From a virus (Duplodnaviria; Caudoviricetes): a DNA stretch of 64,000 bases. Of this stretch, positions 1 through 58,516 are shown in pieces (within the stretch, counting starts at the first letter, position 1; each line of letters opens with the position of its first letter). A program made the position numbers and the translations under genes. The notes under the pieces were generated by a model that saw only the letters and a program-made list of their open reading frames with translations, ran no database searches and had not been told where the DNA came from. The stretch is taken from the IMG/VR virus record IMGVR_UViG_2887198475_000002. One strand, written 5' to 3'.

Positions 1-88
1 GAGACGCGGCCGCCGAGTCCCGCCCCGGTAGCCGCCACCGCGCCTCCCCCCATGCCCATTCGGAAGGCCGACCACGATCGGCCCTCCC

Positions 89-105
89 CTTATGGCGTCA
101 CGACC
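89..105 (-). promoter_or_regulatory. Late promoter motif copy 1 (gene runs off the left edge)
   Basis: GGTCGTGACG-C-CATAAG; hairpin 62-87 before ATG 59/53. Confidence 0.65.
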
Positions 106-115
106 TTGGGCGCCG

Positions 116-2134
116 CTATCCCTTGCGGGCGGAAAAGAGCGGGCAAGCGGCATCCCGCGGTGCCACGAGGCACCCGCGCGTGCCGCACTCACGCAGCGGG
201 GACTCTCCGTCTGGCGGATAGGAGCGGCAGCGGCCGCAGGTCCCCGGCGGCAGCTCGTCAATCATCGCCAGCACTTCTTTCGGCAACCCCGGCATTGCCT
301 CGGCCACCTTCTTCGCGCGATCGGTTTTCAGCTCGTCGCCTCCCATGTCCGGCAGCAGCATGGTCCCGGTACCGTAGGCGCGCGCCCACGCGACATCGCA
401 CAGCATATTGGCGTATGAGCTGTGCGGGTCGATGCCGACCTTGACCACGCGCCGGCGCAGCTTCTTCTGCTCTGGGTCCGGCCGGTCCGTCACCAGCGCT
501 GTTTTCTGAAAATGGACGAAGGCCACGTCCTTGAGGACGGCCACCGTCCTGCGCTCGCCCTTCTCGATGATCTCCTGAACCCGGCCCTGGGGATCGGGGA
601 ACAGACACACGCGCTTGGCGATGCGCCCCATGGAGACGGACATACATTTGTATTGGTCGAGCGTGACGGTGTAGCGGTCCCGCGCCTCACGCGCGATCTT
701 GCGGTCCGCCTTCGAGTTGTCCGCGTCCCCCCACCGCATCATCTCGTCGGCGATGTCGCTGTAGCCGGCGAGGAACACACGCCCCAGGTGGCGCTTCGCG
801 AATGCCTTGGCGTCGTTGTAGTTCGGCAGGGTTTCCACCACGCAGACCGCCACCCCGTATTGCTCCATCAGTTCAGAGCATCGCTTGAACGGGTCCTCGC
901 TGTAGATCAGCTCGAAGTGGATGACGGCTTGCCTGCCGTCCGGCAGCCGTTCTTTGCAGATGAACACGTTGAAATTGCCCATCTGGTCTATGCCGGCGAA
1001 CGTGTTCCGCGCGCGCTCCTTCCACACCACACCGGCCTTGCGGCCTTCCTCGACGCAGGCGTTGAGCATCCCGAGATTGACTGGAATCTGACTCGGATCC
1101 GCGTAGGGCTTGCCCAGCTTGCGGTTGAAGAAATTCATCATGTCATCGGCGTTGTGATACGCCTCGATGATTTCCCGCGGGCTGATCGTGGGGCTTAGGA
1201 ACTGCGGATAATGGACGCTGATATACCGGGCCTCCGGATGTTCCGCGATCCACTCTCCCTGCTGGGCATCGTCAATCCAGGCCCCGCAGGCGCAGCGGTA
1301 TCGGTAGTCGTCGCGCTCCTCGTCCCAGGCGATGCACTCTGGAAAGCGATCGTCCAGCGGCGCCGCGGTGCCGCAGCTCGGGCAGCGGGTGTGGAAGCGG
1401 TGCTGCGTGCCGCGGACGTAGAACCAATGGATGTCGGCGTCCGGCCACTTCGCCGTCGATCCCATCAGGCGGAACTTGATGCGGCTGGCCGAAAGACGCT
1501 CCTGCGTTTTCTCCATATCCGCAATCTTCATTTCCTGAACTTCATCATAGGTGATGATGTCCATCGGAAAGGATTCCGTCGTCGCGCGCCCGGTTGTGTA
1601 GAGGAAGTGGAACCGGCTCGCCCCCATGGTCCGGATCATCACGTTGCCCTCGGACCGCTTGCGCTTGCCGTCTGCGCCTTCGCTCGTGAGGCGGTTGTAA
1701 GCGGACGGAACGGTTCGGACGATCGGCATAAATCGCTCGCTCGACTTCGCCGCGGCGAGCTTCGCATCCGGTAGATACATGCCGATCTTCGCAGGCTCGA
1801 ATTTCAAAGCCATGTAGATGCACGCGAGCATCTCCATTACCGTGAAGCCGACCTGGGCGCATTTCATCATGACAACGAGACGGCTTTTTGCCTCCTCGAT
1901 CGTCGTGGGGATCAGGTCATAGACGAACCACATGCTCCGGCGATCGGCGAGCGTGAACGGGATGCCGTCCACCTTCAGACCCTTCGCGCCCAGATCCTCG
2001 CACCACTCCCGAAAGGTCATGCCCTCCGGGATGGTGCCAGCGCCGTCATAGCCGACCTCGGCGGCGAAGGCTTCCAGCTCCCGCCGCAGCACCGCGGCGG
2101 AAGCGGCTGCCAGGGAGAGCGCAGCCTTACCCAT
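116..2134 (-). CDS. terL: Terminase large subunit, lambda GpA-type, with C-terminal Cys-rich extension
   Basis: GpA-like Walker A variant VMMKCAQVGFT, Walker B IITYDE, GST coupling motif, CPSC..CAC zinc ribbon, FFNRKLGKPY, nuclease GIDQMG. Start moved to MGKAAL (ATG 2134), which overlaps the upstream stop. Confidence 0.9.
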   Translation of the reverse strand: MGKAALSLAAASAAVLRRELEAFAAEVGYDGAGTIPEGMTFREWCEDLGAKGLKVDGIPFTLADRRSMWFVYDLIPTTIEEAKSRLVVMMKCAQVGFTVMEMLACIYMALKFEPAKIGMYLPDAKLAAAKSSERFMPIVRTVPSAYNRLTSEGADGKRKRSEGNVMIRTMGASRFHFLYTTGRATTESFPMDIITYDEVQEMKIADMEKTQERLSASRIKFRLMGSTAKWPDADIHWFYVRGTQHRFHTRCPSCGTAAPLDDRFPECIAWDEERDDYRYRCACGAWIDDAQQGEWIAEHPEARYISVHYPQFLSPTISPREIIEAYHNADDMMNFFNRKLGKPYADPSQIPVNLGMLNACVEEGRKAGVVWKERARNTFAGIDQMGNFNVFICKERLPDGRQAVIHFELIYSEDPFKRCSELMEQYGVAVCVVETLPNYNDAKAFAKRHLGRVFLAGYSDIADEMMRWGDADNSKADRKIAREARDRYTVTLDQYKCMSVSMGRIAKRVCLFPDPQGRVQEIIEKGERRTVAVLKDVAFVHFQKTALVTDRPDPEQKKLRRRVVKVGIDPHSSYANMLCDVAWARAYGTGTMLLPDMGGDELKTDRAKKVAEAMPGLPKEVLAMIDELPPGTCGRCRSYPPDGESPLRECGTRGCLVAPRDAACPLFSARKG

Positions 2135-2510
2135 GGTGCGAGGCGTCAAACTCCATGATCGCCCGCTTGAGGTAGTTGGCGGCGGCCAGATGCTCCTCGT
2201 AAGCAAATTCGAGCCAGCCTCGCACGTCGAGATCCTTGCGTTCGAGGCCGGCGCTGTAATGCGACATGCCGATCGCGGAGCGCATCAGCAGGTCGGATAC
2301 GATGGCCGAGACGACAGGATCGGCGGAGGCCAGTTGCGGCGCCTCGATCGAGGAGAACTCCTCGCCGGTCGGGGGCGTGCGGGGCGGAGGCGGCGGGGGT
2401 GGCGCAGGAGCGCGGGGAGGCATGGAGGCGGCGACTTTGCGCGCCAGCTCGACCGCGCCCCCCAGCGCGCGAGCAATCCCGATCAGGCCAGCAATACGCA
2501 CTTCAGCCAC
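2127..2510 (-). CDS. Hypothetical protein, possible all-alpha nucleotide pyrophosphohydrolase-like domain
   Basis: RSAIG..HY...LERKDL...WLEFAYEEHLAAANYLKR pattern common in phage proteins; in the operon. Confidence 0.55.
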   Translation of the reverse strand: MAEVRIAGLIGIARALGGAVELARKVAASMPPRAPAPPPPPPPRTPPTGEEFSSIEAPQLASADPVVSAIVSDLLMRSAIGMSHYSAGLERKDLDVRGWLEFAYEEHLAAANYLKRAIMEFDASHHG

Positions 2511-2514
2511 TCCT

Positions 2515-3332: not shown

Positions 3333-3880
3333 GAGAGCCCGCCGCCCTCGCGCAGCGCGTCAACGAACGCCGGGATGTCGGGCGACCACGCGCCGAACCT
3401 GCGCACCGTTGCATTGAACTCGCCGAGATCGTGATCAACCAATGCCCAGACGGGATTGCCGTCGTCATCGAATTTCGGCTCGCCTTCCTTGTCCTTGGCG
3501 TGCCCGATGTGGCCCAACTCGTGGTGGACAAGGGCGCGCCGGCGATGCAGGTCCGCGCCGTGCCACCATTCCCGGTCGATCAGCAGGAGGAAATCCGGCG
3601 CCGTGCCGCCGCATGCCTTCGCCAGCAGCCACGCGCCCACCGGCGCAAGCCCGCCCTGGAAGCGCGGCAGGCACATCTCCCCCAACACCCAGCGCCCGCC
3701 CTTCACCTTCGGCACCGTCCGCATGAGGAACAGGATGGCGGGCTGGCCCAGCTTGAGGTGCGCGAACTCCTCGCATTCCTCGACCAGCCGGGCGGCGATT
3801 TCCTGCGGCCCGTCCGCTCCGTCATCGGCCATCTCGAAGAAGTCGCTTGCTGCGACCTCGTCGCCGTCGCCGTTCTTCAT
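3329..3880 (-). CDS. Putative phage metallopeptidase
   Basis: ALVHHELGH zinc motif plus DHDLGEFNATVRRFGAW tail typical of this phage family; ATGA overlaps at both ends. Confidence 0.8.
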   Translation of the reverse strand: MKNGDGDEVAASDFFEMADDGADGPQEIAARLVEECEEFAHLKLGQPAILFLMRTVPKVKGGRWVLGEMCLPRFQGGLAPVGAWLLAKACGGTAPDFLLLIDREWWHGADLHRRRALVHHELGHIGHAKDKEGEPKFDDDGNPVWALVDHDLGEFNATVRRFGAWSPDIPAFVDALREGGGLS

Positions 3881-4188
3881 GCCGGCTCGCCCCCGTAGAG
3901 GATGACGATGACGCTGGGGTTGGCCGGGGACCGGGCCGGGTTCGGGGCGCAGTGGAAGCGCGGGCGGGTGCTGGGCGCGGCCTTGCGCTGGGCGTCTCGG
4001 TCGCGCTGGCGTCGGGCGTTGGTGCCGAACTCCACGCCGCAGCCGCAGATGCCGTGCGGCTCGCCCAGGCTGCGCACGTCGCAGTTCCCGCACTCATACA
4101 GGGGCTTGCCGCCGGGCGCCGTGCCGACCGCGAGGCGAGAGCCGCAGAAGCGGCAGGCGTGATCGACCCACGGGATACCGCCGCTCAT
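3877..4188 (-). CDS. Cys-rich zinc-finger protein
   Basis: CRFC, CGNC, ICGC motifs; ATGA coupling with both neighbours. Confidence 0.65.
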   Translation of the reverse strand: MSGGIPWVDHACRFCGSRLAVGTAPGGKPLYECGNCDVRSLGEPHGICGCGVEFGTNARRQRDRDAQRKAAPSTRPRFHCAPNPARSPANPSVIVILYGGEPA

Positions 4189-4970: not shown

Positions 4971-4977
4971 TCGCCTG

Positions 4978-5808: not shown

Positions 5809-6149
5809 AGGCCCAGGCGCTCCACCGCGCTGCTGATTGCGAGGGACGCCTGCCGGGCGCCGGGGCCTGCGGCCTTCTCCGCGGTCTCGGTGGCGATCTT
5901 CAGGGCCGCGGCAACGGCGGCATCCTGGGCGGCGGCCGCATCCACGGCGCGGTTGTTGTCGGGCACGAGGATGCCAGCCAGCGGGCCAAGCACCGTCACG
6001 AGCGCCACGATTTTGTCGGTCCACGCCGTGAGCTGGTCGAGCGTCACAGCGCCCGCCAGGACCAGCAGCAGCATCAGCAGCACGACGAGCTGGATCCGCG
6101 AGCTGCGCTCCGCGAGGCGTGCGCGGAGGAAAGAGAGGATCTTGTCCAT
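5805..6149 (-). CDS. Putative holin
   Basis: Two hydrophobic segments, directly upstream of the endolysin; SD GGGGAG before MDKILS. Confidence 0.65.
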   Translation of the reverse strand: MDKILSFLRARLAERSSRIQLVVLLMLLLVLAGAVTLDQLTAWTDKIVALVTVLGPLAGILVPDNNRAVDAAAAQDAAVAAALKIATETAEKAAGPGARQASLAISSAVERLGL

Positions 6150-6186
6150 CGAGACTCCCCAGGCGGGACAATCCCCGCCATGGGGC

Positions 6187-6203
6187 ACGGTGCCGTCACG
6201 ACA
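6187..6203 (-). promoter_or_regulatory. Late promoter motif copy 2 (holin-endolysin)
   Basis: TGTCGTGACG-G-CACCGT; hairpin 6157-6185. Confidence 0.75.
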
Positions 6204-6580: not shown

Positions 6581-6853
6581 TCAGTCCTCCGGTCCGCCGG
6601 TGATGTGGCGGATCGCCCAGAACTCGGCGGTTTGCAGGCTGCGCAGCGCCAGGGTCAGTTCCGCACTGCCCAGGCGCCCGTTCTGCCCCGTCGCCGGATC
6701 AGTGTTCCCGGCGGCGTGCAGCAGCCGCACGCCTTCGCGCCGCCACGCCCGGATGTGCTTGATGATGTCGATTTGCTCGGGCGTGAAGCCCTTGCGCTGC
6801 CCGGGCGTCGTGCCCGCCGGGGTGGCGTAGCCTGGGAAGTTTTCCTCGGCCAT
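6581..6853 (-). CDS. Acb2/Tad1-like helical hairpin protein (putative anti-CBASS/anti-Thoeris sponge)
   Basis: About 90 aa; PGY...FTPEQIDII and SAELTLALRSLQTAEFWAIRHIT resemble the Acb2/Tad1 hairpin pattern. Confidence 0.55.
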   Translation of the reverse strand: MAEENFPGYATPAGTTPGQRKGFTPEQIDIIKHIRAWRREGVRLLHAAGNTDPATGQNGRLGSAELTLALRSLQTAEFWAIRHITGGPED

Positions 6854-6855: not shown

Positions 6856-7260
6856 CTACGCCTTCTCCGGCACCGCGACGGCGTCGCACGGGCCTTGCGC
6901 GGCCAGGATCTCGCCCAGCTCCGCATGCGCCTCGGCGGCGGCGGCGGCCTGCTGCGCCTCGGCGGCGACGCGGACGCCCTCGGCCTCGACCTCGTCCTTC
7001 TGCTGACGCGCCATCATGAGGCTAGCCACCGTGTTGGAGACGTAGCCGTTGAGCATAGCCGCCACGGCCAGCGCGGTGCCGGGATCGCCCTGCGTTTCCG
7101 TGTCGATGAACTCGCCCAGGGCGATGCCACAGAGCAAGAGCCGGTCGCCGTTCCGCAGCCCGGCAGTCTCGCGCGCGATCGTCTCGCGGATCGCGTTGAC
7201 CGCGGCCTCCGCAGCTCCGCCGTCATTCTGCTGCGGGGCGGCTGTCGTCATTTCGTCCAT
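6856..7260 (-). CDS. Hypothetical protein
   Basis: SD AGAGGA before MDEMTT; helical composition. Confidence 0.55.
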   Translation of the reverse strand: MDEMTTAAPQQNDGGAAEAAVNAIRETIARETAGLRNGDRLLLCGIALGEFIDTETQGDPGTALAVAAMLNGYVSNTVASLMMARQQKDEVEAEGVRVAAEAQQAAAAAEAHAELGEILAAQGPCDAVAVPEKA

Positions 7261-7855
7261 GGGTGTCCTCTTTCTGATCGAAGCGGGTCGCCTGATTCCC
7301 CCAGGTGTCCCAATTTTCGCGAGAGGCACGCGCGAACAGCTCGCATCGCGGGCCGTCGAACATGCGCTCAAGGTCGGCGTGCAGTCGGTCCGGCTTGCGG
7401 GAGTGCTCGCGCACCGGAGCAAGGATCAGGTTGCGCACATCGCGCACGAGCTGGCGCGGCTCGCCGACCGCGCCCCACAAGATGAACTCCGCGGCGCTGC
7501 GCAGCCGGTAGCCGGGGCCGAACGCCATCTTTGCGCTCGGATCGCCCAACCCCGCGCTGCGCTTCGACAACTTCCCCCAGGCGGCCGCGGTGGTGTAGGC
7601 GAAGCCCCAGGCGGCCAGCGCCTCGAACGCCTGGGGCAGCATTGGCGCGGTTGCCCACATCACGAGGCAACATCCGTCAGGGTGCGCCAGCTCGCGGACC
7701 GGCAGGGCCTTGATGGCGTGCAGGTCCATGCATTCATAGTGGCGCTGCGGAGATTTCCCCAATCCCTTCGGGGACCACGAGCGCCAGGACCATGGCGGAT
7801 CGGCGAGTACAACGCGATAGGCCCGGCGGCGCAGCTCCTCGAAAGGCCACGTCAT
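7223..7855 (-). CDS. MT-A70 family N6-adenine methyltransferase
   Basis: VVLADPPW, HYECM, LVMWAT, EHSRKPD, ELFARAS..NWDTWGNQ. Confidence 0.9.
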   Translation of the reverse strand: MTWPFEELRRRAYRVVLADPPWSWRSWSPKGLGKSPQRHYECMDLHAIKALPVRELAHPDGCCLVMWATAPMLPQAFEALAAWGFAYTTAAAWGKLSKRSAGLGDPSAKMAFGPGYRLRSAAEFILWGAVGEPRQLVRDVRNLILAPVREHSRKPDRLHADLERMFDGPRCELFARASRENWDTWGNQATRFDQKEDTHGRNDDSRPAAE

Positions 7856-8004
7856 GACGGCGGATTTCCCCGCCGCCACGCGCGGCAGCGCCACATCAGC
7901 TCGGCAACGCCAGGGCGGATCAGGCCCAGCGCCGCCGAGAGCGGGAAGGCGCCTGCGATGCCGCAGGGCGCTAACCAGCACAACATGGAGGCTGCGTCAG
8001 CCAT
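7852..8004 (-). CDS. Small hydrophobic hypothetical protein (50 aa; not in the ORF track)
   Basis: MADAASMLCWLAPC...; its TGA overlaps the methylase ATG (ATGA). Confidence 0.4.
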   Translation of the reverse strand: MADAASMLCWLAPCGIAGAFPLSAALGLIRPGVAELMWRCRAWRRGNPPS

Positions 8005-8860: not shown

Positions 8861-9342
8861 GGCTGCGAGCCTCCCGCCTGCTTGGCCCGCATGTCGGTGA
8901 TGAACCGGACCGCCATTGCCGCGACCTGCACGGCTTCCTCGATGGCGCGTTCCGTCCGGTTGGCCTTCACATCATCCCACAGCCCGTCCAGCTCCTCGCG
9001 GATGACGGCAAAGCCTTCATGCGCGCTGTTGAACGCCGGATACTTGGCGACAGCGCGCGCGACCTCTGCCCGAACATCCAGCAGCGCCGCATCCGTGGCA
9101 GCCATGCGGTTCTCAGCGCCCGGGACGGCGATCGGAGCATCGCCGCGCATCCCCTCCTCGCGCCCCTTCGCCCAGGCGACGCGCACCGTCTCCGGCCAGT
9201 CCGCGTCGCAGCCGAACACATCGTCATCCTCGCCACGGCCGTATAACCCGGCGAGGAACCCGCACATCTCCACGTCATCGAGCATGCGTTGCGTGACCTT
9301 CACGGTGCGCGCCTCACATTCCAAGGGCACGGCGGTAGACAT
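8842..9342 (-). CDS. Protein with C-terminal MazG-like NTP pyrophosphatase domain (start uncertain)
   Basis: FNSAHEGFAVIREELDGLWDDV...IEEAVQVAAMAVRFI. Confidence 0.6.
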   Translation of the reverse strand: MSTAVPLECEARTVKVTQRMLDDVEMCGFLAGLYGRGEDDDVFGCDADWPETVRVAWAKGREEGMRGDAPIAVPGAENRMAATDAALLDVRAEVARAVAKYPAFNSAHEGFAVIREELDGLWDDVKANRTERAIEEAVQVAAMAVRFITDMRAKQAGGSQPCPPTS

Positions 9343-9721
9343 CGAGGAGCGTTTCCTGTTCCTCGACCTCGGCCGGCTCCTGCTTGCGGATGCGGATGAG
9401 CTGGCGCAGCACCTTCACGTCGAAGCCGGCGCTTTTGGCCTCCGTGTAGATATCCTTGATGTCTCCGGCGAGCGCCTTGCGCTCCTCCTCCAACCGTTCG
9501 ATGCGCTCGGTAATGCTGCGCAGCCGGTCCGCGGCGATGTTGCCCCACTGCCGGGCCTCCGGCCCGGGATCGCCCGGGCCGGTCACGTCCTCAATCTCGG
9601 CCTGCCCTTCGGTGCGTTGCGGCTTGCGGCCGCTAACCACTGCCAGGGCGGCGCGCACCTTGCTGATGGGCACATCAGGCCCGCCGTTGATCGAGATCGT
9701 CTCTTCGTTGGTGGCAAGCAC
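9314..9721 (-). CDS. gapR: GapR/DUF2312 nucleoid-associated protein with N-terminal extension
   Basis: IAADRLRSITERIERLEEERKALAGDIKDIYTEAKSAGFDVKVLRQLIRIRK..EVEEQETLLDVYRRALGM is the canonical DUF2312 sequence. Confidence 0.92.
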   Translation of the reverse strand: MLATNEETISINGGPDVPISKVRAALAVVSGRKPQRTEGQAEIEDVTGPGDPGPEARQWGNIAADRLRSITERIERLEEERKALAGDIKDIYTEAKSAGFDVKVLRQLIRIRKQEPAEVEEQETLLDVYRRALGM

Positions 9722-24674: not shown

Positions 24675-24708
24675 ATCGGGCGCGCTCCGGCGGGTTATAT
24701 CGCCGGAG

Positions 24709-24725
24709 AGCTTTCCGTCACGACC
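24709..24725 (-). promoter_or_regulatory. Late promoter motif copy 3
   Basis: GGTCGTGACG-G-AAAGCT; hairpin 24685-24708. Confidence 0.8.
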
Positions 24726-31478: not shown

Positions 31479-31511
31479 GGTGGTGAGCGAGCACTCGAAA
31501 GCTGCCCGCCC

Positions 31512-31528
31512 ACCTTCTCGTCACGACC
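31512..31528 (-). promoter_or_regulatory. Late promoter motif copy 4
   Basis: GGTCGTGACG-A-GAAGGT; hairpin 31482-31514. Confidence 0.8.
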
Positions 31529-35771: not shown

Positions 35772-35778
35772 ACGCTCC

Positions 35779-35795
35779 GTTGTTCCGTCACGACC
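35779..35795 (-). promoter_or_regulatory. Late promoter motif copy 5 (leaderless)
   Basis: GGTCGTGACG-G-AACAAC, immediately after a terminator; ATG 35771. Confidence 0.75.
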
Positions 35796-37232: not shown

Positions 37233-37239
37233 GGTGCCC

Positions 37240-37256
37240 AGGTTCCTGTCACGACT
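37240..37256 (-). promoter_or_regulatory. Late promoter motif copy 6 (leaderless)
   Basis: AGTCGTGACA-G-GAACCT; ATG 37232. Confidence 0.7.
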
Positions 37257-44700: not shown

Positions 44701-46047
44701 GCGCCGGCGGATGCGGGCGAACATGCCGCCCTCCTCGATCCGCTGCCACTCCCAGGGGTCCGTGACACCGGCGCGGGTCAGCGCCCGATAGGTCAGATGC
44801 CGCGACGCCTCGCCGGCGCCGCCACCCTGCGTCAGCACCGCGTTGATGCGGTTCAGAACGTCCTCTGCTCCCTGCCCCTGCAAGCCGGGCCGGCCCAGGG
44901 AGGAGAGCGAGGAATACATGCCCGCGAACAGATCGACGTTGCTGCGGTCGGCGAGCTGGCGGTTGCTCTGCTCGGTCCAGCGCACGAGGGCGTCCATGAC
45001 CTCGCCGAAGCGGCCTGTCATGCCGCTCTCGCGCACCGCCTCGCCCACCAGGGCGGCGAAGCGCCGCGGATCCTCCCCCTGCTTGGCGGCGCGGCCCAGG
45101 CCCTGCACCACCTCGCCCGGGTCCTGGCCGTAGGAGCGCGCGACACCGGCTGCCCAGCTCACGCCAGCCTGCGTCGCCCTGCCGCTCGTCTCGTTGGTGA
45201 GCCGCGCCCATTCCAGGCTGTATCTCTGGGCCTCTTGGAAGGTCAGCCCGAAAGCGTCGGCCGTATCGCGGACCTGCCGGCGAAGCGTCTCGAAATCAGT
45301 CCCAGCATCGCGCAGGGTCTTGGACAGGCGATCGTTGGAAACCGCCTCGTCCTGGGCGTTGCCAAGCCCCTTCACGGCCATACCGCCCAGCGCCGAGATG
45401 CCAGCCAGCGCCAACCCGAACTTCGTCGCCTTCAGCAGTCCGCCGGCGCCGCCCATGTCGAGGATGCCGGACAGGAGCCCCTTGTCGGTGCCTCCCTCCT
45501 CGCCCCCTCCGCTCCCGCCACCGCCACCGCCGCCACCACCACTGCCGCGGCCGGTCATGCCCAGGCGGCGGGAGAGCCACGTATCGAGGCCGTAGAGCCA
45601 GCCAGTGCGCGTCTGATGCTGCGGATCGGGCTGGCCCGGCGCTGGGCTTGGGCCTGGGGATGGAGGAGGCGCCCATTGCGTGCCGCGAATCAGGAACGCG
45701 CCGGCATTCGCCTCGTAACGCCGCAGGTCCCGCTGGTCAGCGAAGATTTGGGCCGCGCGATCACGCAGATTGAGGACATCGACGTGCTCCGGACCGCCCG
45801 CCTCGTGCGTGATCTGCCGGGTAGCAGCGCCGGTATCGCCGCGGGCGCGCCGGAGCTGTTCGAGCTGCGCCTGCATCCGCTGCAAGTCGTCGCGCACCGG
45901 CGCGAGGGCCGGGTGCGCGGACGCCAGCACTTCCGCGAGCCGCTTGCCTTCGAGGCCGGCCGCTTTGATGGCCGCCTGGATTTGCGAAAACGCCTGGGTC
46001 GCACCGCTTGGATCGGCGCTGATCCCGATAGATACCCGACCTGCCAC
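38776..46047 (-). CDS. Tape measure protein with a very long Pro/Ala/Gly-rich insert and a C-terminal VgrG3-like muramidase domain
   Basis: Follows the chaperones; helical N-terminal part of about 680 aa; GSLSARFES...GGWSYGTYQFAS...VWSTAVQHG near 39300-39942. Confidence 0.8.
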   Translation of the reverse strand: MAGRVSIGISADPSGATQAFSQIQAAIKAAGLEGKRLAEVLASAHPALAPVRDDLQRMQAQLEQLRRARGDTGAATRQITHEAGGPEHVDVLNLRDRAAQIFADQRDLRRYEANAGAFLIRGTQWAPPPSPGPSPAPGQPDPQHQTRTGWLYGLDTWLSRRLGMTGRGSGGGGGGGGGSGGGEEGGTDKGLLSGILDMGGAGGLLKATKFGLALAGISALGGMAVKGLGNAQDEAVSNDRLSKTLRDAGTDFETLRRQVRDTADAFGLTFQEAQRYSLEWARLTNETSGRATQAGVSWAAGVARSYGQDPGEVVQGLGRAAKQGEDPRRFAALVGEAVRESGMTGRFGEVMDALVRWTEQSNRQLADRSNVDLFAGMYSSLSSLGRPGLQGQGAEDVLNRINAVLTQGGGAGEASRHLTYRALTRAGVTDPWEWQRIEEGGMFARIRRRRNERGELEDDPTAPTLFEAKWEEANRMYTGRPETPAPRTETQQQANRRRAGIARDMGLTIRQVEAFEQAAPGGDIGRLFPTIERAGISMSDVNPGALQPLITLAGENREQMEARRRGLLEDSTIALPPERREALQRAGTDDELRTALAQAINARGLEANDGTRTVEAMASFSNTLTGAMTGLVAPINDLKTVISAIARPLTRISEALGEGYNRPPIEAVQGAGQKLGSWLREWWNGKGEDKPASPPGVTAPAAIAGQPGAAQPSAIPSWQRPAGQGGQAQQVPPVTRPRQLPPLSADELRAQGIEVTEGALPESERGEEPIPLVPQRPREEEKEEPETPQARATREDISRAFQAALSPRASARPATVAPPEPMAPQRPRAQAEAPAEEERPAPASELPGKPDVVPVPPASPLPEPNERPPHPPLVERPPAPPEGEPLPEGPAALPTVPPQSAPEPPEPAEPQAIPPREPADLPQPLPTLPPPERPDWYVPIPPPERAAVPPLPPPPPPGPEPLATVPPMGLVEGPPRGEPTAIEPRRPAPPPNVSVNVTVPPPAPGTQAPASLVGAVSSQPEARREAVPVPPVVSQNPGEMRGNEPRVSPDPSNAGAAPAASPAVEAPGSVDGRGRQVDALGRPVGGPAPAAGQVAPSPGQSTAGALPQQPPAVVPGAQAGTGVGPVFRPGAGAGAGGAGGVGGAGGAGAPGESGRDGRDAAQAPAGRPGVQAIPPAPLPLTVPPAMPGAPGAGGAGGQAIPPGPPPLTAPPAAPGAPGAGGAGGAGGEGTAGRDGRNAAPGGAGAGARAIPPGPVPLAAPPAAPGVGGTTPAAPGAPTRHPGIVPTAPVGAGAAPVLEPGAGGAGGEGVAGQSGRDAASALAGAPGAQAIPPGPSPLTVPPAASGVGGATPTAPAEVGRPGAQPVPPGSQPQQPMTAPPAAPGAAPVLRPGAGGAGPQVIGPQPLSAPPVAPEVGRGGAGPAAGAGAGGAGGAGAQGGEGGSGAVGPAGERGPGAVSGYPPASVRPSSDIIRRADQGYARQPGAPGADGGQNAPLPASPAPILPPPAGGAVAPLPRRPSRVPRQGEEPQTPSAAGAGGAGGEGAPGDGGRDGRDASLPAALPSSVAPGAGSQLPALPPAQGRGQTAAAPPSARAVAGVAGAGAIAPAPAPTPAPTGQPIPPDPQPLTAPPPAQQRTLGDRFRRLFGVTPTHVDPSWRPIEGDPVPAGWSAPGWAERDGKAVPVPEAGREVMPGTVTAPPLDGGHEVAPPAESAPPGAPPAVPAAGQPQAPAAAAPPLPATPTRPPGAAVRRPTQPPPLARAPRTAEEAAAGAPIAQAGEVEAARTAGEQAVPPPSEAAIVRDPGERYALTNPAPLPGAPVGGSAPAGGNQAAPAGAPAPNLGRPSAPQQPPGAVTGGAGAAPETGANAGPAGGDRGPGAAPGPAQPGTPARPPGLAAQPRSAGRAGAPAAPGAAQPEGQPGPSAQVPQQPRGDWRLPENRPQGGGWIGPSIRRQEHGPAAGTPMEGGAVSPELTRPGRGAGGRVPPGVMGAQEGAPGSQPGIGRVAFSPGANGGVSQAPQLSPPGAGGGAGNGAPIGSLSARFESARAGATAIGRDSTGGWSYGTYQFASARGSVEPFLATLRREAPDIAARLDAAGGSRAALAGTAQFRQAWQQAATDPRFAGIEHAHIQATHYNPLARTAGELGIDLQGRSAALRDVVWSTAVQHGPGRSLNSSRGPTGGASVLQDAVRSLGARTPEQVARLTDEQISQAIYAQRRTRFSNSTPNERASVMRRFDQEGALALRRIGEERAAIAAAPQVPRPEAAAGAAQGGAQAMPPGAAMAVPPGAPRPPGPAIVPPGAPRPPESAIVLPAAAHAPQPAADLPQAPTGMPSPEPATAASGAVPSPGYGTALPPEERARLAEQGSPGMAGAGAGAQQISVSTSANIAPLRVVHETDKGEDRGEEFLPVTAYEAPKAWGASA

Positions 46048-46074
46048 GCCGCAACCCTTTCTGCGCTCGCAGAG

Positions 46075-46091
46075 AGGGTTGCGTCACGACC
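46075..46091 (-). promoter_or_regulatory. Late promoter motif copy 7 (tape measure)
   Basis: GGTCGTGACG-C-AACCCT; hairpin 46051-46082. Confidence 0.8.
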
Positions 46092-46490: not shown

Positions 46491-46802
46491 TCAAGCTCCG
46501 CCGCGAAATCGGTCCTCCGCTACGCGGAGCGCGCCAAATACCTTCCAGAGTTCCGCAGACACGTCCCTGTCCAGAGGATCAAGGTATTCCACGTTCCAGC
46601 CGGCGGGAGCCTCTTTAATCAGGACGATCAGCGTCGCCATCGCAAGGCTGATGTCTTTCAGGTCCGGATCGTCGGTCGGCCCGCCTGTGATCCGCACGGC
46701 CTCGGCCTGGATGCGGATCTGATCGCGGATCAGACGCTTGCGGAATACGAAATGGCCGACGCCTGGGACATCGACCGGATAGGTGCGCTCTGCGGCTTGC
46801 AT
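46491..46802 (-). CDS. Tail assembly chaperone (G-like)
   Basis: Between tube and tape measure; ends DRFRGGA. Confidence 0.7.
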   Translation of the reverse strand: MQAAERTYPVDVPGVGHFVFRKRLIRDQIRIQAEAVRITGGPTDDPDLKDISLAMATLIVLIKEAPAGWNVEYLDPLDRDVSAELWKVFGALRVAEDRFRGGA

Positions 46803-46831
46803 GGGAAAGCCCGTCCCTTGTGAGAGGGACG

Positions 46832-46849
46832 AGCTTTTTCGTCACGACC
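46832..46849 (-). promoter_or_regulatory. Late promoter motif copy 8 (chaperone)
   Basis: GGTCGTGACG-AA-AAAGCT; hairpin 46806-46837. Confidence 0.8.
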
Positions 46850-49495: not shown

Positions 49496-50363
49496 TGCCT
49501 TCGTTGCTCTCCTGAGAAGGGAAGAAAGCGGACGCGGACACTTCCACGTCCCTGATCGGCCCCACGCGATGCGACGCATAGGACGGCGCGATGCACGAGA
49601 ACTGCCCCACCGACATGAACAGAATCGCGTTGCTGTTCTTCGGCCCTTCGTCCTCGTGGTCGGACAGCGAGAACTCGACTTGATCCAGGCCCGCGGCCTT
49701 GAAAACAGGCAGGTTCGCGATGACGATGCGCTTGATGGCGCGGCGCAACGCGATGCGCTCGTCCCCGTTCAAGGAGACGGCGACGACGCGCAGCACCACG
49801 CGCGAGAGCCAGCCTTCGCCATCGTCCCAGCCCACGCCCTCGATCACCTCGCCGTCGCCGAACGACTCCCCGATGCCGCGGTAGGCGGGCAGGTCGCTTT
49901 CGAGGTGGACGGACACGCAGGGAAAGGTGACGTGCTCGACCATCGCGAAGGGCGCGGTCACGACCTGAATCTTGCCGGACTGCGGCAGCAGCGCCCCGCG
50001 CTGCACTTCGGTCTTGAGCCCCGCTTCGAGCCGGTCGCGAAGGACCGTCTGCGGGTCCGCATCGTCGCCGGCATAGGACGCCTGGGGCACCCCCTGGCCT
50101 TCGTCATGGCCGATCCAGGCGCCGGTGCGGCCCCGGTAATAGACGCGGTAGTGGTAGGTCGCCCCGTTGGACAGCCCCTTGGCGTCCATCACCACGTTCG
50201 CGTCGGTCCGGTCCACGACCATGGCCGCCCCGGGATCGTCCGGCCCGGTGAAGGCCGCCGGGTTCGTGCGACGAAGCACGCGCCAGCTCGTCGCCTCGTT
50301 CGGAGGCGTGAGATAGAGGCGCAGCGCGCCGCCGGCCATGAGTGTTTCGATGTACGAAATCAT
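49488..50363 (-). CDS. Neck/tail terminator-like protein
   Basis: FPCVSVHLESD..YRGIGE; position upstream of the sheath. Confidence 0.6.
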   Translation of the reverse strand: MISYIETLMAGGALRLYLTPPNEATSWRVLRRTNPAAFTGPDDPGAAMVVDRTDANVVMDAKGLSNGATYHYRVYYRGRTGAWIGHDEGQGVPQASYAGDDADPQTVLRDRLEAGLKTEVQRGALLPQSGKIQVVTAPFAMVEHVTFPCVSVHLESDLPAYRGIGESFGDGEVIEGVGWDDGEGWLSRVVLRVVAVSLNGDERIALRRAIKRIVIANLPVFKAAGLDQVEFSLSDHEDEGPKNSNAILFMSVGQFSCIAPSYASHRVGPIRDVEVSASAFFPSQESNEGNG

Positions 50364-50370
50364 CGTCCGC

Positions 50371-50387
50371 AGCTTTCCGTCACGACC
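50371..50387 (-). promoter_or_regulatory. Late promoter motif copy 9 (leaderless; tail operon)
   Basis: GGTCGTGACG-G-AAAGCT; ATG 50363. Confidence 0.8.
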
Positions 50388-52736: not shown

Positions 52737-53174
52737 TTAGTTGTCGATCTGGATGCTGATCTGTCCGGCCAGGAACTGCGGCGCGGCATCGCCGGAGTTG
52801 ACCGTTTTCGAGGTGGTGAGCGCGCCATACCAATGCAGATTGCCGCCGGTCGCCGCGTCCCAGACGCCCCAATGCGTGATGTTGCCCCAATTGGCCGTGG
52901 GGACGGCGAAGTTCACAGCGATGGCGTTGGTGGTGGTGCCGTTGGTGCCGGAGCTGTTGCCGGAGGTCGAGCCGTGGGTGCCGTTCCAGCTCGCCGTGGC
53001 GCGGGAGACGGACACGCGGGCATATCCGGCGCCCGTGACCTCGGTGCCGGGGCCAGTATCGGAGGGAGCCGCCGTCATGAGGCCGATGTAGAGATTCGTC
53101 GGCAACGTCGGCGCGACGCCGCGGAAATAGTAGTCGATGAGGATGTTTTCGAGGGTATCGGTCATGGCCGTCAT
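52737..53174 (-). CDS. Small virion structural (decoration/fibre-base) protein
   Basis: LEN.LID, LYIGL.TA.P.D..GTEVTG.GYARV, WG.ITHWGVWDAATGGNL. Confidence 0.75.
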   Translation of the reverse strand: MTAMTDTLENILIDYYFRGVAPTLPTNLYIGLMTAAPSDTGPGTEVTGAGYARVSVSRATASWNGTHGSTSGNSSGTNGTTTNAIAVNFAVPTANWGNITHWGVWDAATGGNLHWYGALTTSKTVNSGDAAPQFLAGQISIQIDN

Positions 53175-53224
53175 AGGCGGAATCCCCTGATTGCGCCGGG
53201 ACTTCCCCGCCGCGCTGCCGGTTC

Positions 53225-53241
53225 AGGATTCCGTCACGACC
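53225..53241 (-). promoter_or_regulatory. Late promoter motif copy 10 (neck operon)
   Basis: GGTCGTGACG-G-AATCCT; pairing 53178-53233. Confidence 0.8.
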
Positions 53242-53525
53242 AACAGAAAGGTCGCGCCATAGCCACGGAAGCTGGGCTCACGTTAAGTGAAACAAAATAG
53301 GAATAAATGCTGGTTTGCTGTTGGTCATCGTGAACCACGCATACTTTATAACGTTAATTATCGATGTATGTGGATGTCCTACTCGCAATGTTTCAATCCA
53401 AAATTTTGACTTCGATATAGAAAATAATTTTGTTGGCGACACAAGCGCTGCGCATGGCTATAATTTTAATCTGCAATGTTGCAAAAATACTAGTAATACA
53501 GCATACAAATCTACAAGGCATAACA

Positions 53526-55063: not shown

Positions 55064-56524
55064 TCACTCGTCCGCGAACGGACGCCACACCTGATTGCGG
55101 GTCACGATGTTCCGCACCATCACATGCTGCTTGCGCTTCGACATCCGGAGGAAGCCGAAATACATCTGCGCCCAGGGGATGATCGGGCTGTCGGTGGGGT
55201 AGAGCTGCCACTTCAGCATCGGCATGAGCTGACGGAACGTGATCGCCGTGTCGCCGGGCGACAGGTTCAGCACGTAGGCTTCCTGGCTCCCCGGGACGAT
55301 CCGGTTCACGTCCTCGAACGTGGTGGTCGCACCCACGCGCGGGATGCGGCAGACCTCGCGCAGATCGGCGACGGCAGCCGGGCCATTCTGGCGGCCGCGG
55401 TAGATCACGTAGCCGGTTTCCTGGCCGGCCGCAGATGCGGCGATGGTCAGGACCACCTTCTTGCCGGCGGCGACAGCAATCTGCCCCGTCAGGCTGACGG
55501 TCGAAGCCCCCTTCTCGCTCACGCCGGCCACCCCGTAGACGTAGGTGCCGGCGCGGGCGGTGGTGAACTTAGAGTCCGCGGCGTTGCCCGTGGCGTCCGT
55601 GGTCACGCTGGTCGGGGTCATGCCGGCATTGGCGGCAGCGATGGCCGGCTTGATGAGCTGGAAGGCCCGCTTCATGCCCTCGTGGCGGATGAACACGTCC
55701 TGATTGGTCGCGATGTTGCCGTTGGACGTGCGGATGCCCACCACCGGCGCGCCGATCTTCGCGCCCGTATCACCAACGTTCGAGAGCGGCACGCGATAGG
55801 CCGGATCCAACCTGTTGTCGAAATCCTGCTGTGTCGCCTGATTCATGAACAGATCGGTCGCGGTGCCGAACTGGCCGTAGCCGGCGATGTGCGCGGCGGC
55901 GGCATTCAGCTCGTGCTGGCTTTCCAGCGGCTTGCCGTCCATGTCGATGATGTTCTCGGGCGGCACGCGGCCGCTCGCGACCCCAGCGAGGAGCTGGGCC
56001 TTGATGCCAGAAAACTCAGTTGGGACAACCCCATCGTCCCCCTCGAACAGCAGGTATTCGAGATCGGAGAGGAGCTGCTTCGCGCCGTTGCTGTATTCGG
56101 TCGCCTCCGCGTCCGCGATGGCCTTCTGCAAGGTCACGACCAGCGAAACCTGCCGGCGGGCCATGAGAAACTTGACCATCCCGACCATGCGCTGATAGGC
56201 GCCGGTCGCGTCACGGATCACGCCCGTTTCCGTGTTGGTCGAGCCGCCCAGGAAGCCGCCGATGTCGTCCTGCTCGGTCCATTCGTCCACGGTGCCCAAG
56301 GGCTTGGTCTTGGGCAGGCGGTTGAACAGCACGAAATGCTTGTTGGTTTGCAGGGCGACCTGCATGACGGGGTCCAGCGACTGCACTCGGAGCGCAGCGC
56401 CGCCGGTCAACTCCGGCGCATTGGTTCCGTAGCCAGCGGTCAGGGCTTTCTGTAGCGCCTCAACATCAGCCTGCGCCATTGCGCCGGTGATGGCGCCCGA
56501 CGCGAAGATTGCGGGATCGAGCAT
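55064..56524 (-). CDS. Major capsid protein (Twort/K/SPO1-like)
   Basis: LQKALTAGYG...GAALRVQSLD, LEYLLFEGD, EFSGI, NIIDMDG.PL, GTATDLFM. Confidence 0.88.
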   Translation of the reverse strand: MLDPAIFASGAITGAMAQADVEALQKALTAGYGTNAPELTGGAALRVQSLDPVMQVALQTNKHFVLFNRLPKTKPLGTVDEWTEQDDIGGFLGGSTNTETGVIRDATGAYQRMVGMVKFLMARRQVSLVVTLQKAIADAEATEYSNGAKQLLSDLEYLLFEGDDGVVPTEFSGIKAQLLAGVASGRVPPENIIDMDGKPLESQHELNAAAAHIAGYGQFGTATDLFMNQATQQDFDNRLDPAYRVPLSNVGDTGAKIGAPVVGIRTSNGNIATNQDVFIRHEGMKRAFQLIKPAIAAANAGMTPTSVTTDATGNAADSKFTTARAGTYVYGVAGVSEKGASTVSLTGQIAVAAGKKVVLTIAASAAGQETGYVIYRGRQNGPAAVADLREVCRIPRVGATTTFEDVNRIVPGSQEAYVLNLSPGDTAITFRQLMPMLKWQLYPTDSPIIPWAQMYFGFLRMSKRKQHVMVRNIVTRNQVWRPFADE

Positions 56525-56571
56525 CTGTCAGCCTGCTTTTGTGAGAGGTTGCGTTGCGCGGCGCCGGGCGG

Positions 56572-57246
56572 CTACGCGAACAGGTGCCGCAGCTCGTCGG
56601 GGATGCCGAGGCCGCGGGATTGATAGGTGAACACGCGATTGGCCGCGGTTGCGTCGATCTTGCCTTCGCTCAGGAGCGAGTGCGCCTTCGCCAGAATCGC
56701 CTCGCCGGAGGGGGCTTCCGTGCCAGTTGGCGTCGCCGGGCCGCGCTTCTCGTGGACCGTCAGCACCGCCTTGCGGCCGGAACCAGAGCCGGACAGCTTT
56801 GCGATGTCCGCTCGCATGGCCTTGATGAGCTTGCCCTGCTCCTGAATCGTGGTGAGCATCGGCTTCATCAGCCCGCCCAGGGTTTCGAGCGACTTCGCGA
56901 GCTGGGCGCCCTCACCTTCGCGGGCATCCATGCGGGTCATCAGCGCCTTGAGCATGGCGGTGCCGTCGAAGGCTTCCGCCTTCTCGCCATTGGCAAGCGT
57001 GACCTCGAAGGACTTGCCGAACGCTTCCCCGCCTTCGCCTTCGCCCTCGCCTTCACCCTCGCCCTCGCCGCCACCATCGGCAGCTCCGGCGCCGTCCCGG
57101 GCGGCGGCCTCGATCTTTTCGTCGGTCGCGGCATCGTCGCTGCCCGAATCCGGCAGGGCCTTGGCCAAGGTTTCGAGATCGGCCAGTAGCGCGGCAAAGC
57201 CGCCCTCGGCCTCCGCCGGAGCGCCGGCGGCGGTCTTTTCAGTCAT
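56572..57246 (-). CDS. Scaffolding protein
   Basis: Acidic, (GE)n run, coiled coil, multiple K[AS]-hydrophobic motifs; between protease and capsid. Confidence 0.7.
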   Translation of the reverse strand: MTEKTAAGAPAEAEGGFAALLADLETLAKALPDSGSDDAATDEKIEAAARDGAGAADGGGEGEGEGEGEGEGGEAFGKSFEVTLANGEKAEAFDGTAMLKALMTRMDAREGEGAQLAKSLETLGGLMKPMLTTIQEQGKLIKAMRADIAKLSGSGSGRKAVLTVHEKRGPATPTGTEAPSGEAILAKAHSLLSEGKIDATAANRVFTYQSRGLGIPDELRHLFA

Positions 57247-58160
57247 CGAGCTTTCCTCTTGCTGAGAGCGGTCCGCAGATCGCCCAAGAACCGCTCCGTC
57301 CAATCCGCGGCCTCGTCATAGGCGAGGCCGTACGCGGAGATGGCGTGGTCGGTCAGGGCTTCGACGGAAGGGGGGACGCGCTTGGCGCGCACGTCCGATG
57401 CGATGCGGTCCCGGAAATCCCAATAGGATTGCACACGCGGTTCCAGGCTTTGGTGCCGCAGCGCGGCTCCGCCTGTCAGGCTGGCGGAATCGGTCCCGTA
57501 GCCGGCCACGAGGCCCGCCGGCGCGCCGCCGTCTGATTTGGTGAAAATGAAGCCGCCGAGCGACTTGGCGAACGTGCCGACCGGCGCGACGCTGACCTCT
57601 GGCACCGATTTGTTGACGGGACAGCGATCCAGCGCCGTGTTGTTCCAGCGCACGCGCTCGACCACCGCCACGCGGTTCTGCGACTTCGGGTCGAATCGCA
57701 CGGACTTCGCCAGCACCGCGCCGCCCACGCTGGCGAACCACTTCGCGGGAGGCTGCTGCTTGGTCAGGCTGTCCCAGACCATGTTCGCGTTGCGCGCCAT
57801 GGGAGACGAGCCGGTATAGAGCTGGGCCTTAACGAACGTCCGGTTGCCGTCTATGCGGACCGCAACCGGGCGCCCAACCTCATAATCGTAATGGTTGGGG
57901 ATGCCAGCCTTTGGGCCAAGTATAGTGTAGTGCGATAAATCTACATTGCCGTGGCGTATGTAATAATCTGAGCTATCCGCCAGGGCCTTTTGTAATACAA
58001 TTTCGCCCTGGTGGTCGGGATCCTCGTTCGACGCCTCGAAATAGAGGAAACGATTGCCGCCGTCCTCAGACGGGGACGCCTTGAGGACGACGCCAAGCGC
58101 CACCCATTCGGGCACCCCAGACAACAGCTCCTCGTCCCTGCGCGCCGCGCGCTCGTCCAC
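57243..58160 (-). CDS. Prohead protease
   Basis: EASNE.PDHQGE.V, HGNVDLSH, ASVGG, PVN. Confidence 0.8.
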   Translation of the reverse strand: MDERAARRDEELLSGVPEWVALGVVLKASPSEDGGNRFLYFEASNEDPDHQGEIVLQKALADSSDYYIRHGNVDLSHYTILGPKAGIPNHYDYEVGRPVAVRIDGNRTFVKAQLYTGSSPMARNANMVWDSLTKQQPPAKWFASVGGAVLAKSVRFDPKSQNRVAVVERVRWNNTALDRCPVNKSVPEVSVAPVGTFAKSLGGFIFTKSDGGAPAGLVAGYGTDSASLTGGAALRHQSLEPRVQSYWDFRDRIASDVRAKRVPPSVEALTDHAISAYGLAYDEAADWTERFLGDLRTALSKRKAR

Positions 58161-58187
58161 AGTGGCAACCCCTTGCTCGTGGGGTCC

Positions 58188-58204
58188 ACGATTGCGTCAC
58201 GACC
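58188..58204 (-). promoter_or_regulatory. Late promoter motif copy 11 (protease-scaffold-capsid)
   Basis: GGTCGTGACG-C-AATCGT; hairpin 58162-58189. Confidence 0.8.
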
Positions 58205-58222
58205 TGCGCAGGGAGGAGGAAA

Positions 58223-58516
58223 TCAGCCGCCGATGATAGGCGGCTGTGGGTCAAGGATGGACTTTGCCCGGGCGATGACGACGGCGAGCTGGCCCTTTTC
58301 GAGCGTCAGATCCCGGTAGCGGTCGCCGGCGACGGGGTCGAGGAGCGCCCGGGGGGCGAGCCGGACAAGATCGGATTGGACCTCGCCCAGCCGCGCCTCC
58401 GCCGCGGCGAGGATTTGCCTCTCGGCCGCGGCGGTCTGCTGGGCGAGCCAAGCTAGGTGAACGAGCCGACGACGCGCGCCGGCCATGTGCTGGTCAGGGG
58501 ATGGAGCTGCGGCCAT
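58223..58516 (-). CDS. Hypothetical protein under a late promoter (leaderless)
   Basis: ATG at the predicted +1 of the motif at 58530-58539. Confidence 0.6.
   Translation of the reverse strand: MAAAPSPDQHMAGARRRLVHLAWLAQQTAAAERQILAAAEARLGEVQSDLVRLAPRALLDPVAGDRYRDLTLEKGQLAVVIARAKSILDPQPPIIGG

Follow-up and report, generated by a model that had tools for sequence, protein, structure and literature searches.

A probable late promoter of a contractile-tailed phage family that may tie translation of late genes to their own transcription starts

How could the first gene of a late transcription unit be translated from the RNA of its own promoter and stay silent in RNAs that arrive from upstream? 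The question is raised by a 64,000-nucleotide (nt) stretch of viral DNA (the window), the first 64 kb of the 112,335-bp virus record IMGVR_UViG_2887198475_000002, in which a short box, GTCGTGAC, recurs ahead of late genes. The record is rated complete, has 67% GC and is taken to be a circular assembly because of a 77-bp terminal overlap; its predicted genes (Pfam/PHROGs) encode a contractile-tailed phage (myovirus). An initial annotation of the window had proposed that each late promoter either gives a leaderless messenger RNA or removes one arm of a hairpin that occludes the ribosome-binding site (RBS).

We lean, with modest confidence, towards a reading in which the late promoter, combined with a leaderless start or an anti-RBS arm, makes translation of the first gene depend on that gene's own promoter. 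The conserved element GTCGTGACG would be the upstream half of a family-specific late promoter, directly before an nAnnnT −10 hexamer and lacking a −35 element, and would probably be read by host sigma-70 RNA polymerase aided by a putative phage factor. The first transcribed nucleotide would lie 7 nt past the hexamer's T. At about half of the copies here, and about two thirds in relatives, +1 would be the A of the start codon, giving a leaderless RNA with little or no Shine-Dalgarno (SD) sequence. At most other copies here, the roughly 14 bases before +1 (−10 and discriminator DNA) would be complementary to the SD or start region 20–45 nt downstream. An RNA arriving from upstream would carry both arms and fold over the ribosome site, while one born at the promoter would lack the 5′ arm. 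Read-through RNAs from upstream late units, early operons or the prophage state would be poorly translated at the first gene of a late unit.

The repeated box and its promoter-like geometry

The window has 20 copies of GTCGTGAC, where 100 shuffles give 2.00 ± 1.43, and a 10-mer with at most one mismatch is found 22 times in the window against 7.4 expected. The whole record holds 28 copies, 18 intergenic and 10 intragenic. Every one of the 18 intergenic copies is co-oriented with its downstream gene, and the 12 window copies named in the initial annotation are all present, on the minus strand. The ten intragenic copies read GTCGTGACC, and four of them lie in repeated fibre domains. Plus-strand 8-mers at 25793, 26813, 33862 and 34165 fall within the tail proteins of 1301 aa and 1405 aa, with nearly the same surroundings each time; belonging to repeated protein domains, these four were ruled out as promoters.

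When the 18 intergenic copies are aligned with the first G of the box as index 0, four further positions stand out: G8 (17/18), A11 (18/18), T15 (14/18) and G16 (14/18), which extends the consensus to GTCGTGACG-nn-A-nnn-T. Upstream of the box, conservation among the 18 copies reaches at most 0.53 bit, at a weak G adjoining the box, and beyond that at most 0.31 bit. The copies thus have no −35 element, and consist of a −10-like hexamer, nAnnnT, with a class-specific upstream box at index 0–8. A11 and T15 correspond to A(−11) and T(−7) of the sigma-70 −10 hexamer, which places the predicted +1 at index 22; under this inferred start the box spans about −22 to −14. As no one-mismatch box combined with A11 and T15 occurs anywhere in the genome, the 18 intergenic copies are taken to be the full set.

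Three other kinds of element were considered and ruled out: a dyad-symmetric operator, since the arms differ at each site; an ECF or sigma-54 promoter, since there is neither a −35 nor a −24 element; and a promoter of a T7-like single-subunit polymerase, since the large open reading frames (ORFs) include no such polymerase.

The same arrangement is found across a family of related loci. Relatives were collected by sheath alignment as 80 viral loci and 31 loci in bacterial genomes, 111 in all, with 49–71% GC and some loci occurring in both sets. All 111 have at most 51% sheath identity to the present phage; closer sheath homologues, at 56–67% identity, exist outside this set. A single-protein search for related viral loci gave no matches, and sheath alignment found them all. 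Among the family's members are Dolphis, a cultured phage of Pseudomonas, and prophages in Azospirillum, Microvirga, Geminicoccus and Nitrosomonas. The box is strongly biased in strand, with 175 forward against 9 reverse copies in the viral loci and 76 against 5 in the bacterial-genome loci. Among 143 distinct copies in the 80 viral loci, A11 is kept in 137 and T15 in 135, and the majority bases at index 21–24 are C-A-T-G. The geometry that the initial annotation had inferred (box, −10-like nAnnnT and +1 on or beside the ATG in four window copies) is thereby backed both by the alignment and by family-wide conservation.

A fixed box-to-AUG distance of 14–15 nt would also suit a ruler-like RNA enzyme or factor, so that the box could instead act at the level of RNA, either as an endoribonuclease site that makes 5′-AUG RNAs or as the site of a translational activator that replaces the SD. 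Two further observations can be read in this way. Among 89 predicted proteins, Pfam/PHROGs scans brought up no candidate reader of the box (the small ORFs at 58.2–62.4 kb and 2.1–8.6 kb had no Pfam/PHROGs matches). In addition, contigs of two RNA-sequencing runs from one study (X4 and X5), which give no starts, ends or strand, bridge the copies P46841, P58196 and P58531, promoters being named here by box coordinate. The two key bases of a sigma-70 −10 are nevertheless the very A and T that are invariant here, 3 nt apart and ahead of the AUG by 7 nt. About a third of copies have leaders of 20–60 nt, so that box and AUG are not bound to one another. Copies 97519 (−) and 97713 (+) form a divergent, back-to-back pair, and the sole upstream neighbour gene of copy 91673 is on the opposite strand; these arrangements, like the terminator-like hairpin beside the box at 35787, fit a promoter better than an RNA processing site. 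In Lalka27a, small-RNA sequencing 5′ ends, taken as transcription starts, lie 6 nt past an analogous −10, according to the accessible part of the preprint (10.64898/2026.04.20.719267). We consider an RNA-level signal very improbable and proceed with the box as part of a promoter.

Start codons at the predicted transcription start

At four window copies the ATG falls at the predicted +1/+2, as had been claimed, and all four ATGs open long ORFs:

35769–35794, minus strand: P35787, leaderless (predicted); box 35787–35794, ATG 35769–35771 (index 23), 1405-aa protein
37230–37255, minus strand: P37248, leaderless (predicted); box 37248–37255 followed by A, not G; ATG 37230–37232 (index 23), baseplate hub
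50361–50386, minus strand: P50379, leaderless (predicted); box 50379–50386, ATG 50361–50363 (index 23), N-terminus MIS..., kept at this spacing in many relatives
58514–58538, minus strand: P58531, leaderless (predicted); box 58531–58538 overlapping the stop codon of the upstream gene, ATG 58514–58516 (index 22), 97-aa protein

The accompanying statement that none of them has a usable SD is right for three. P58531 has no SD (−2.0 kcal/mol against the anti-SD), for example, but P35787 has GGAG 3 nt before its ATG (−5.8 kcal/mol). Three further leaderless copies lie outside the window, at 91673, 110605 (portal) and 112210 (lytic transglycosylase-like). The last is one of two tandem boxes, 145 nt apart across the record junction (97–104 and 112210–112217), that precede the leaderless gene for a signal-peptide DPBB (RlpA-like) lytic transglycosylase.

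Over the whole genome, an ATG stands at index 21–23 in 8 of the 18 copies, the 5′ ends being predicted; seven of these ATGs open the downstream gene and one, at P6195, opens a 35-codon ORF. The proportion is higher in relatives, where 87 of 134 promoter-like copies in the viral loci (63 of them at index 22) and 41 of 66 in the 31 bacterial-genome prophage loci have an ATG at index 21–23. SD strength at leaderless copies in the family averages −1.25 kcal/mol, against −5.55 kcal/mol for 116 other genes of the present phage. The N-terminus (mostly MI...) of a gene about 1.1 kb before the sheath gene is kept at the same spacing from the box in many loci. In Dolphis, portal, gp6, protease, gp117 and terminase have annotated starts that agree with the box spacing, and at gp15 (L084 14298–14482) the annotated start lies 162 nt downstream of the conserved index-22 ATG, that is, the annotated gene is too short.

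Complementarity between promoter DNA and ribosome sites

The other eight window copies precede leaders, and the eight stems that the initial annotation assigned to them exist as written:

56–104, minus strand: P97; box 97–104, CATAAG (−10-like) 89–94, +1 predicted near 82, stem 62–87; ATG 57–59 opens 41 codons, Gly/Ala/Pro-rich, running into promoter copy 112210, 145 nt on
6147–6202, minus strand: P6195, lysis unit; box 6195–6202, ATG 6147–6149 of a membrane-protein (holin-like) gene; CCCCA 6181–6185 pairs with TGGGG of the GGGGAG SD, 6157–6161
6074–6181, minus strand: 35-codon ORF from the extra ATG of P6195 (index 21, 6179–6181), out of frame with the holin-like gene
24672–24724, minus strand: P24717; box 24717–24724, +1 predicted near 24702, ATG 24672–24674 of a virion protein; stem CTCCGGCG/CGCCGGAG, 24685–24708, 5′ arm at index 16–23
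31476–31527, minus strand: P31520; box 31520–31527, +1 predicted near 31505, ATG 31476–31478, no SD; stem 31482–31514 of 12–13 bp, ending 3 nt before the ATG
46045–46090, minus strand: P46083; box 46083–46090, +1 predicted near 46068, GTG 46045–46047 of a tape-measure-like protein; in stem 46051–46082, GCAACCCT (index 8–15) pairs with AGGGTTGC over the AAGGG SD
46800–46848, minus strand: P46841; box 46841–46848, +1 predicted near 46826, ATG 46800–46802; stem 46806–46837 of 13 bp, ending 3 nt before the ATG
53172–53240, minus strand: P53233; box 53233–53240, +1 predicted near 53218, ATG 53172–53174 of a head protein; in stem 53178–53233, the (C)GGAATCC immediately following the box is paired to GGGATTCC(G), which covers the AGGGGA SD
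58158–58203, minus strand: P58196; box 58196–58203, GTG 58158–58160 of the prohead protease, AAGGGG SD; stem 58162–58189, the 5-bp ACCCC/GGGGT

We computed the cost of unpairing the ribosome site (−13 to +3) in the native upstream RNA and in RNA cut at index 22, and repeated the difference (ΔΔG) with 17 swapped promoter regions. This comparison of long and truncated leaders, which the initial annotation had put forward as a check, gave predicted ΔΔG values of 3.0–18.3 kcal/mol at six of the eight claimed sites. Not one of the 17 swaps was as strong at the stems 24685–24708 (ΔΔG 4.7), 31482–31514 (9.1), 46051–46082 (18.3), 46806–46837 (4.1) and 53178–53233 (3.3). The sixth, 6157–6185, is counted as supported but is borderline (3.0, with 1 of 17 swaps as strong). 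The remaining two claims did not hold up as locks. At 58162–58189 ΔΔG is −0.1 and 65% of swaps are as strong, which is no lock; the stem at 62–87 is a strong structure (9.4), but no credible gene stands behind it (the 41-codon frame is of low complexity), and it was not counted. Outside the window, P97519 gives 13.7. In all, the native upstream sequence beats all 17 swaps at 7 of 9 sites.

Stems of this kind are rarer before genes that lack the motif, a comparison that the initial annotation had itself named as a possible weakness. In 60 genes sampled from the 116 non-motif genes, ΔΔG is 0.35 ± 2.6; it is at least 3 in 15%, at least 4 in 8% and at least 9 in none, and the native sequence beats all swaps in 3.3%. 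The result holds in four other parameter sets, which varied the context lengths, took another RBS window and moved +1 by 3 nt each way; 58196 is the exception. In a separate swap test, the 14 nt before +1 (index 8–21) were set against their own leader and ranked 1, 1, 2, 2, 3, 4, 4, 7 and 8 of 18, with a mean percentile of 0.086 when compared with 151 swaps. No pairing excess was seen in this test for the segment upstream of the box or for non-motif genes. At the six supported sites the ribosome site is predicted to pair with bases upstream of +1 with a mean probability of 0.52–0.84; the 5′ arms lie at index 8–23, the predicted +1 being at index 22. By these analyses, six of the eight claimed sites show a statistically real dependence of predicted RBS occlusion on the sequence that precedes +1.

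The same numbers bear on whether the stems are chance products of GC-rich DNA picked by eye, with only the promoter and the leaderless starts real. The genome is indeed 67% GC, two of the eight claimed stems fail, and the weakest supported ΔΔG values are only 3.0–3.3 kcal/mol, with 15% of control genes reaching 3. A first duplex test on 47 family copies without an ATG at index 21–23 was also negative, showing no enrichment (mean percentile 0.51). It scored the energy of index 8–21 against a fixed 45 nt and took in intragenic and short-leader copies; filtered to 30 intergenic copies it gave 6 at or below the 5th percentile, and it was replaced by the unpairing-cost test. Against chance stand the 7 of 9 sites at which the native sequence beats all 17 swaps, compared with 3.3% of the 60 control genes, the stability over four parameter sets, and replication in two sets of relatives against matched controls. 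Chance pairing is already disfavoured by these controls, and we regard it as improbable.

In relatives, ΔΔG is at least 4 at 10 of 28 leader-bearing intergenic promoters of the viral loci and at 8 of 13 in the genome loci, whereas 2% of matched SD-bearing control starts (n = 60) reach 4. The lock is thus predicted in about a third to a half of relatives' promoters with leaders. The arm pairs vary among phages: GACTCC/GGAGTC and GCCATGAT/ATCATGGC (before tube genes), GTCCT/AGGAC, and CATGGGAG/CTTCCCATG. Such variation in arm sequence among phages points to repeated selection for the pairing itself. Ordinary open leaders, which most leader-bearing promoters of relatives have, include some with a strong SD, ahead of capsid and tube genes. 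The claim that each late promoter is locked is therefore not upheld: in the window P58196 is open and P97 has no credible gene, and the many unlocked leaders in relatives make it fail for the family as well.

More tentatively, and on balance doubtfully, the reading may extend to a whole widespread family of 90–110-kb temperate myoviruses of Proteobacteria, in which the first gene of nearly every late unit would be translated only from RNA of its own GTCGTGAC promoter. Such a family-wide design would place a 5′-terminal AUG without an SD in about two thirds of units and would use a piece of the promoter as the anti-RBS strand in a third to a half of the rest.

The complementarity could also have been selected for another role. 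A helix at the head of a unit might insulate it from read-through by pausing, termination or decay and processing, with a promoter inside the 5′ arm letting new RNAs escape the helix; or, if transcription starts at index 8–16, the stem-loops might stabilise 5′ ends. Some loci do look like this. At L039/L077, CCCCGC..GCGGGG is followed by AUUUUUU AUG, with the 5′ arm inside the promoter, and Dolphis at 28081 is alike (U run of 4–6). The hairpin at 46806–46837 is flanked by AAAA/TTT and scores as a terminator on the plus strand, and at L078, position +1772, a hairpin straddles +1 and leaves the SD uncovered. Insulation would also suit the scarcity of other terminators between late units: terminator-like sites are no commoner than in shuffled sequence (15 sites against 12.5, and 3 against 7.2), although the scan missed a terminator-like hairpin with a T6 run that adjoins the box at 35787 on its upstream side, the loop being too long. 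At the six supported sites, by contrast, no coding-strand U-run follows any stem, save three T at 46806, and the 3′ arms lie on the SD or within 3–4 nt of the start codon, a placement that a terminator or stabiliser does not need. Stems of 8–13 bp are short for RNase III. A start at index 8–16 fits poorly with the ATG that two thirds of family copies have at index 22–23. We judge these other roles, taken together, unlikely, though less so than chance pairing.

Returning to promoter-dependent translation, a number of points weigh against it. The predicted +1 is placed solely by the −10 rule and the ATG positions. P35787 retains its GGAG, and the SD-aware gene caller of the present analysis put three of seven leaderless starts too late (58486 and, in the record, 110563 and 91797). 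The folding results are thermodynamic predictions on GC-rich RNA, and the cut leaders are still fairly structured, with a mean ribosome-site pairing probability of 0.31–0.67. Besides the open leader at P58196, the geneless stem at P97, the low values of the weakest supported sites and the negative first duplex test, 18 of 28 and 5 of 13 leader-bearing promoters of relatives are below 4 kcal/mol, and the hairpin, U-run and AUG at L039/L077 and Dolphis 28081 look like terminators. Most upstream RNAs, moreover, would be late RNAs of the same promoter class, so most units have no earlier transcript class to lock out and a role in timing is unclear. The lysis unit at P6195 is the clearest case in which a lock would matter, because genes without the motif lie upstream on the same strand; yet this most plausible case of early or prophage read-through has a ΔΔG of only 3.0. 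The purpose may rather be to uncouple units or to silence read-through from the prophage state or early genes than to set timing.

The 35-codon ORF at P6195 would itself be leaderless. It crosses an inner GGCGGG/CCCGCC hairpin and overlaps the holin-like start, and, if translated, it might expose the lysis gene's SD.

Read-through, precedents and gene content

One RNA contig, at about 57346–60460, has a depth of 551 in X4 and 358 in X5, against 3–36 over late genes, and crosses both P58531 and P58196. It covers five small unknown ORFs (58532–60104, minus strand), the 97-aa gene and the first 500–800 nt of the protease gene. Abundant RNA that runs across both boxes may thus exist; it could reflect prophage-state transcription reading into the head genes, or it could be antisense RNA. 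Besides the two RNA runs, three DNA runs of the same organism contain the stretch, all as contigs. Around P53233 the X5 contigs end at 53208 and restart at 53253, a contig gap in a single study that is no evidence.

Both halves of the proposed device have precedents. The initial annotation had pointed to the T4 genes e, soc, 49 and I-TevI, and the accessible text of PMC3014915 confirms this: in longer transcripts the SD and/or AUG are held in a helix, and the late promoter is located within DNA coding for the helix's 5′ strand, so that late RNAs lack that strand. The same geometry is predicted at six window sites. T4 differs in having its own sigma, gp55, with a TATAAATA box, and in locking out the early and middle RNAs of a lytic phage. 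The present phage, in contrast, has a different box plus a −10, a predicted lock at 6 of 12 window promoters that is paired with leaderless starts, and upstream RNAs most of which would be late.

The Thermus phages YS40 and Lalka27a, as described in the accessible part of the preprint (10.64898/2026.04.20.719267), have many late promoters per genome, with no −35, a class-specific −10 and a conserved upstream base. Transcription begins at the initiator codon's A or G, 6 nt beyond the −10, terminators between units are few and the phage studied is temperate. Dense −35-less late promoters are thus shared, and a start on the initiator codon is predicted here as well, whereas the motif described there is TAGGGT with a C at −25, compared with GTCGTGACG and nAnnnT here, and that part of the preprint makes no mention of RBS-occluding promoter arms. 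The host differs too, leaderless RNAs being the norm in Thermus.

For a single regulatory gene, lambda cI is leaderless from PRM and carries a leader from PRE, so that its mode of translation depends on the promoter; it differs in involving no hairpin lock and no late genes. The late (Lpa) promoters of phage P1 pair a −10 with a conserved box at about −22, which takes the place of a −35. The present promoters resemble them in this geometry only, with a box near −22 beside a −10, and the P1 box sequence is different. We know of no leaderless starts or promoter-embedded anti-RBS arms in P1. Pfam/PHROGs scans of the 89 proteins named no Lpa-like activator, although no search aimed at Lpa was made. 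According to the accessible text of PMC8198154, P1 is a myovirus of about 100 kb with a plasmid-like prophage and a DarB-like giant virion protein, and its scattered late operons have special promoters that need Lpa, a phage factor binding RNA polymerase.

Literature matching the motif string consisted of primers and unrelated work alone, and that on leaderless phage late promoters and on the cultured relatives gave no description of the box, supplementary promoter tables not being covered; in the Mecenats66 paper the words promoter, motif and leaderless are absent from the text. In the literature searched, the box seems undescribed, and so do a leaderless rule that holds across a family of Proteobacteria phages and the recurrent use of promoter DNA for the anti-RBS strand. 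The helix device and leaderless late RNAs both have precedents, and their combination here is a variant of known devices that is testable in a cultured relative.

If the family-wide reading is true, late genes placed downstream of early, cargo or prophage-state transcription could stay silent even with no terminators, and the protein output of each unit would be set by its own promoter and not by read-through. The promoter would be a translational as well as a transcriptional element, and a whole phage family would control late protein synthesis by where RNAs begin, besides whether they are made. This would offer an explanation for dense late promoters with few terminators and would carry leaderless late expression beyond Thermus phages into those of Proteobacteria. 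In practice, gene callers and deposited annotations misplace leaderless starts, and the box, taken together with the spacing rule, gives a simple and testable means of predicting late units and true starts in more than 100 uncultured phage genomes. Dolphis, in Pseudomonas putida, is a cultured system for testing the box rule.

The predicted genes of the phage provide the context of these units:

116–2134, minus strand: large terminase
near 5–6 kb, minus strand: lysis genes
24.7–37 kb, minus strand: baseplate and fibre genes
GTG start 46045–46047, minus strand: tape-measure-like protein, 2423 aa
47424–49163, minus strand: sheath, the tube gene being likewise on the minus strand
55064–56524, minus strand: major capsid protein
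57243–58160, minus strand: prohead protease
beyond the window (box copy 110605 of the record): portal

Capsid and sheath are 45–50% identical to those of the Pseudomonas phages Dolphis and Jeremy, Bordetella phage PHB04 and Aeromonas phage ST4, and about 34% identical to those of the Thermus Lalka phages. A GapR homologue suggests an alphaproteobacterial host. The scanned genes of the record include no integrase; the family is taken to be temperate because relatives sit in bacterial chromosomes and Dolphis has an integrase, and the present phage is, by way of these relatives, likely temperate too. In the DNA run X1, the phage contig at 45900–59000 has a depth of 90.8, against 37–40 for contigs that touch the stretch through short repeats, an excess that would fit an extrachromosomal or actively replicating element.

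Very large genes also carry the box. Outside the window, one lies upstream of a 3097-aa DarB-like protein (record 67666–76959, plus strand) with an N6-methylase, an SNF2 helicase and an intein-like insert, and another upstream of a helicase of about 1500 aa (record 91695–96290, plus strand); in Dolphis the box precedes a 3.7-kb ADP-ribosyltransferase gene. Giant proteins resembling virion cargo seem to form separate late units. Cargo-like genes at record 83221–86447 and 90466–91539, also outside the window, encode a methyl-accepting chemotaxis protein, an EAL-domain protein and a TnpB/Cas12f-like IS605 OrfB.

Upstream of the lysis unit, on the same strand, lies a block without boxes (6581–6853, 7223–7894 and 9314–9721, all minus strand). 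The three genes encode a small protein that has a sub-threshold match to the Acb2/Tad1 hairpin domain (26.5 bits against a cut-off of 27), a possible anti-defence sponge, together with an MT-A70 methylase and a GapR-like DNA-binding protein. The only non-structural, non-lysis proteins common to the phage and Dolphis are an exonuclease and a 103-aa protein of no known family (3877–4188, minus strand), a candidate regulator, which is 32% identical to Dolphis gp83 (E 1e-10).

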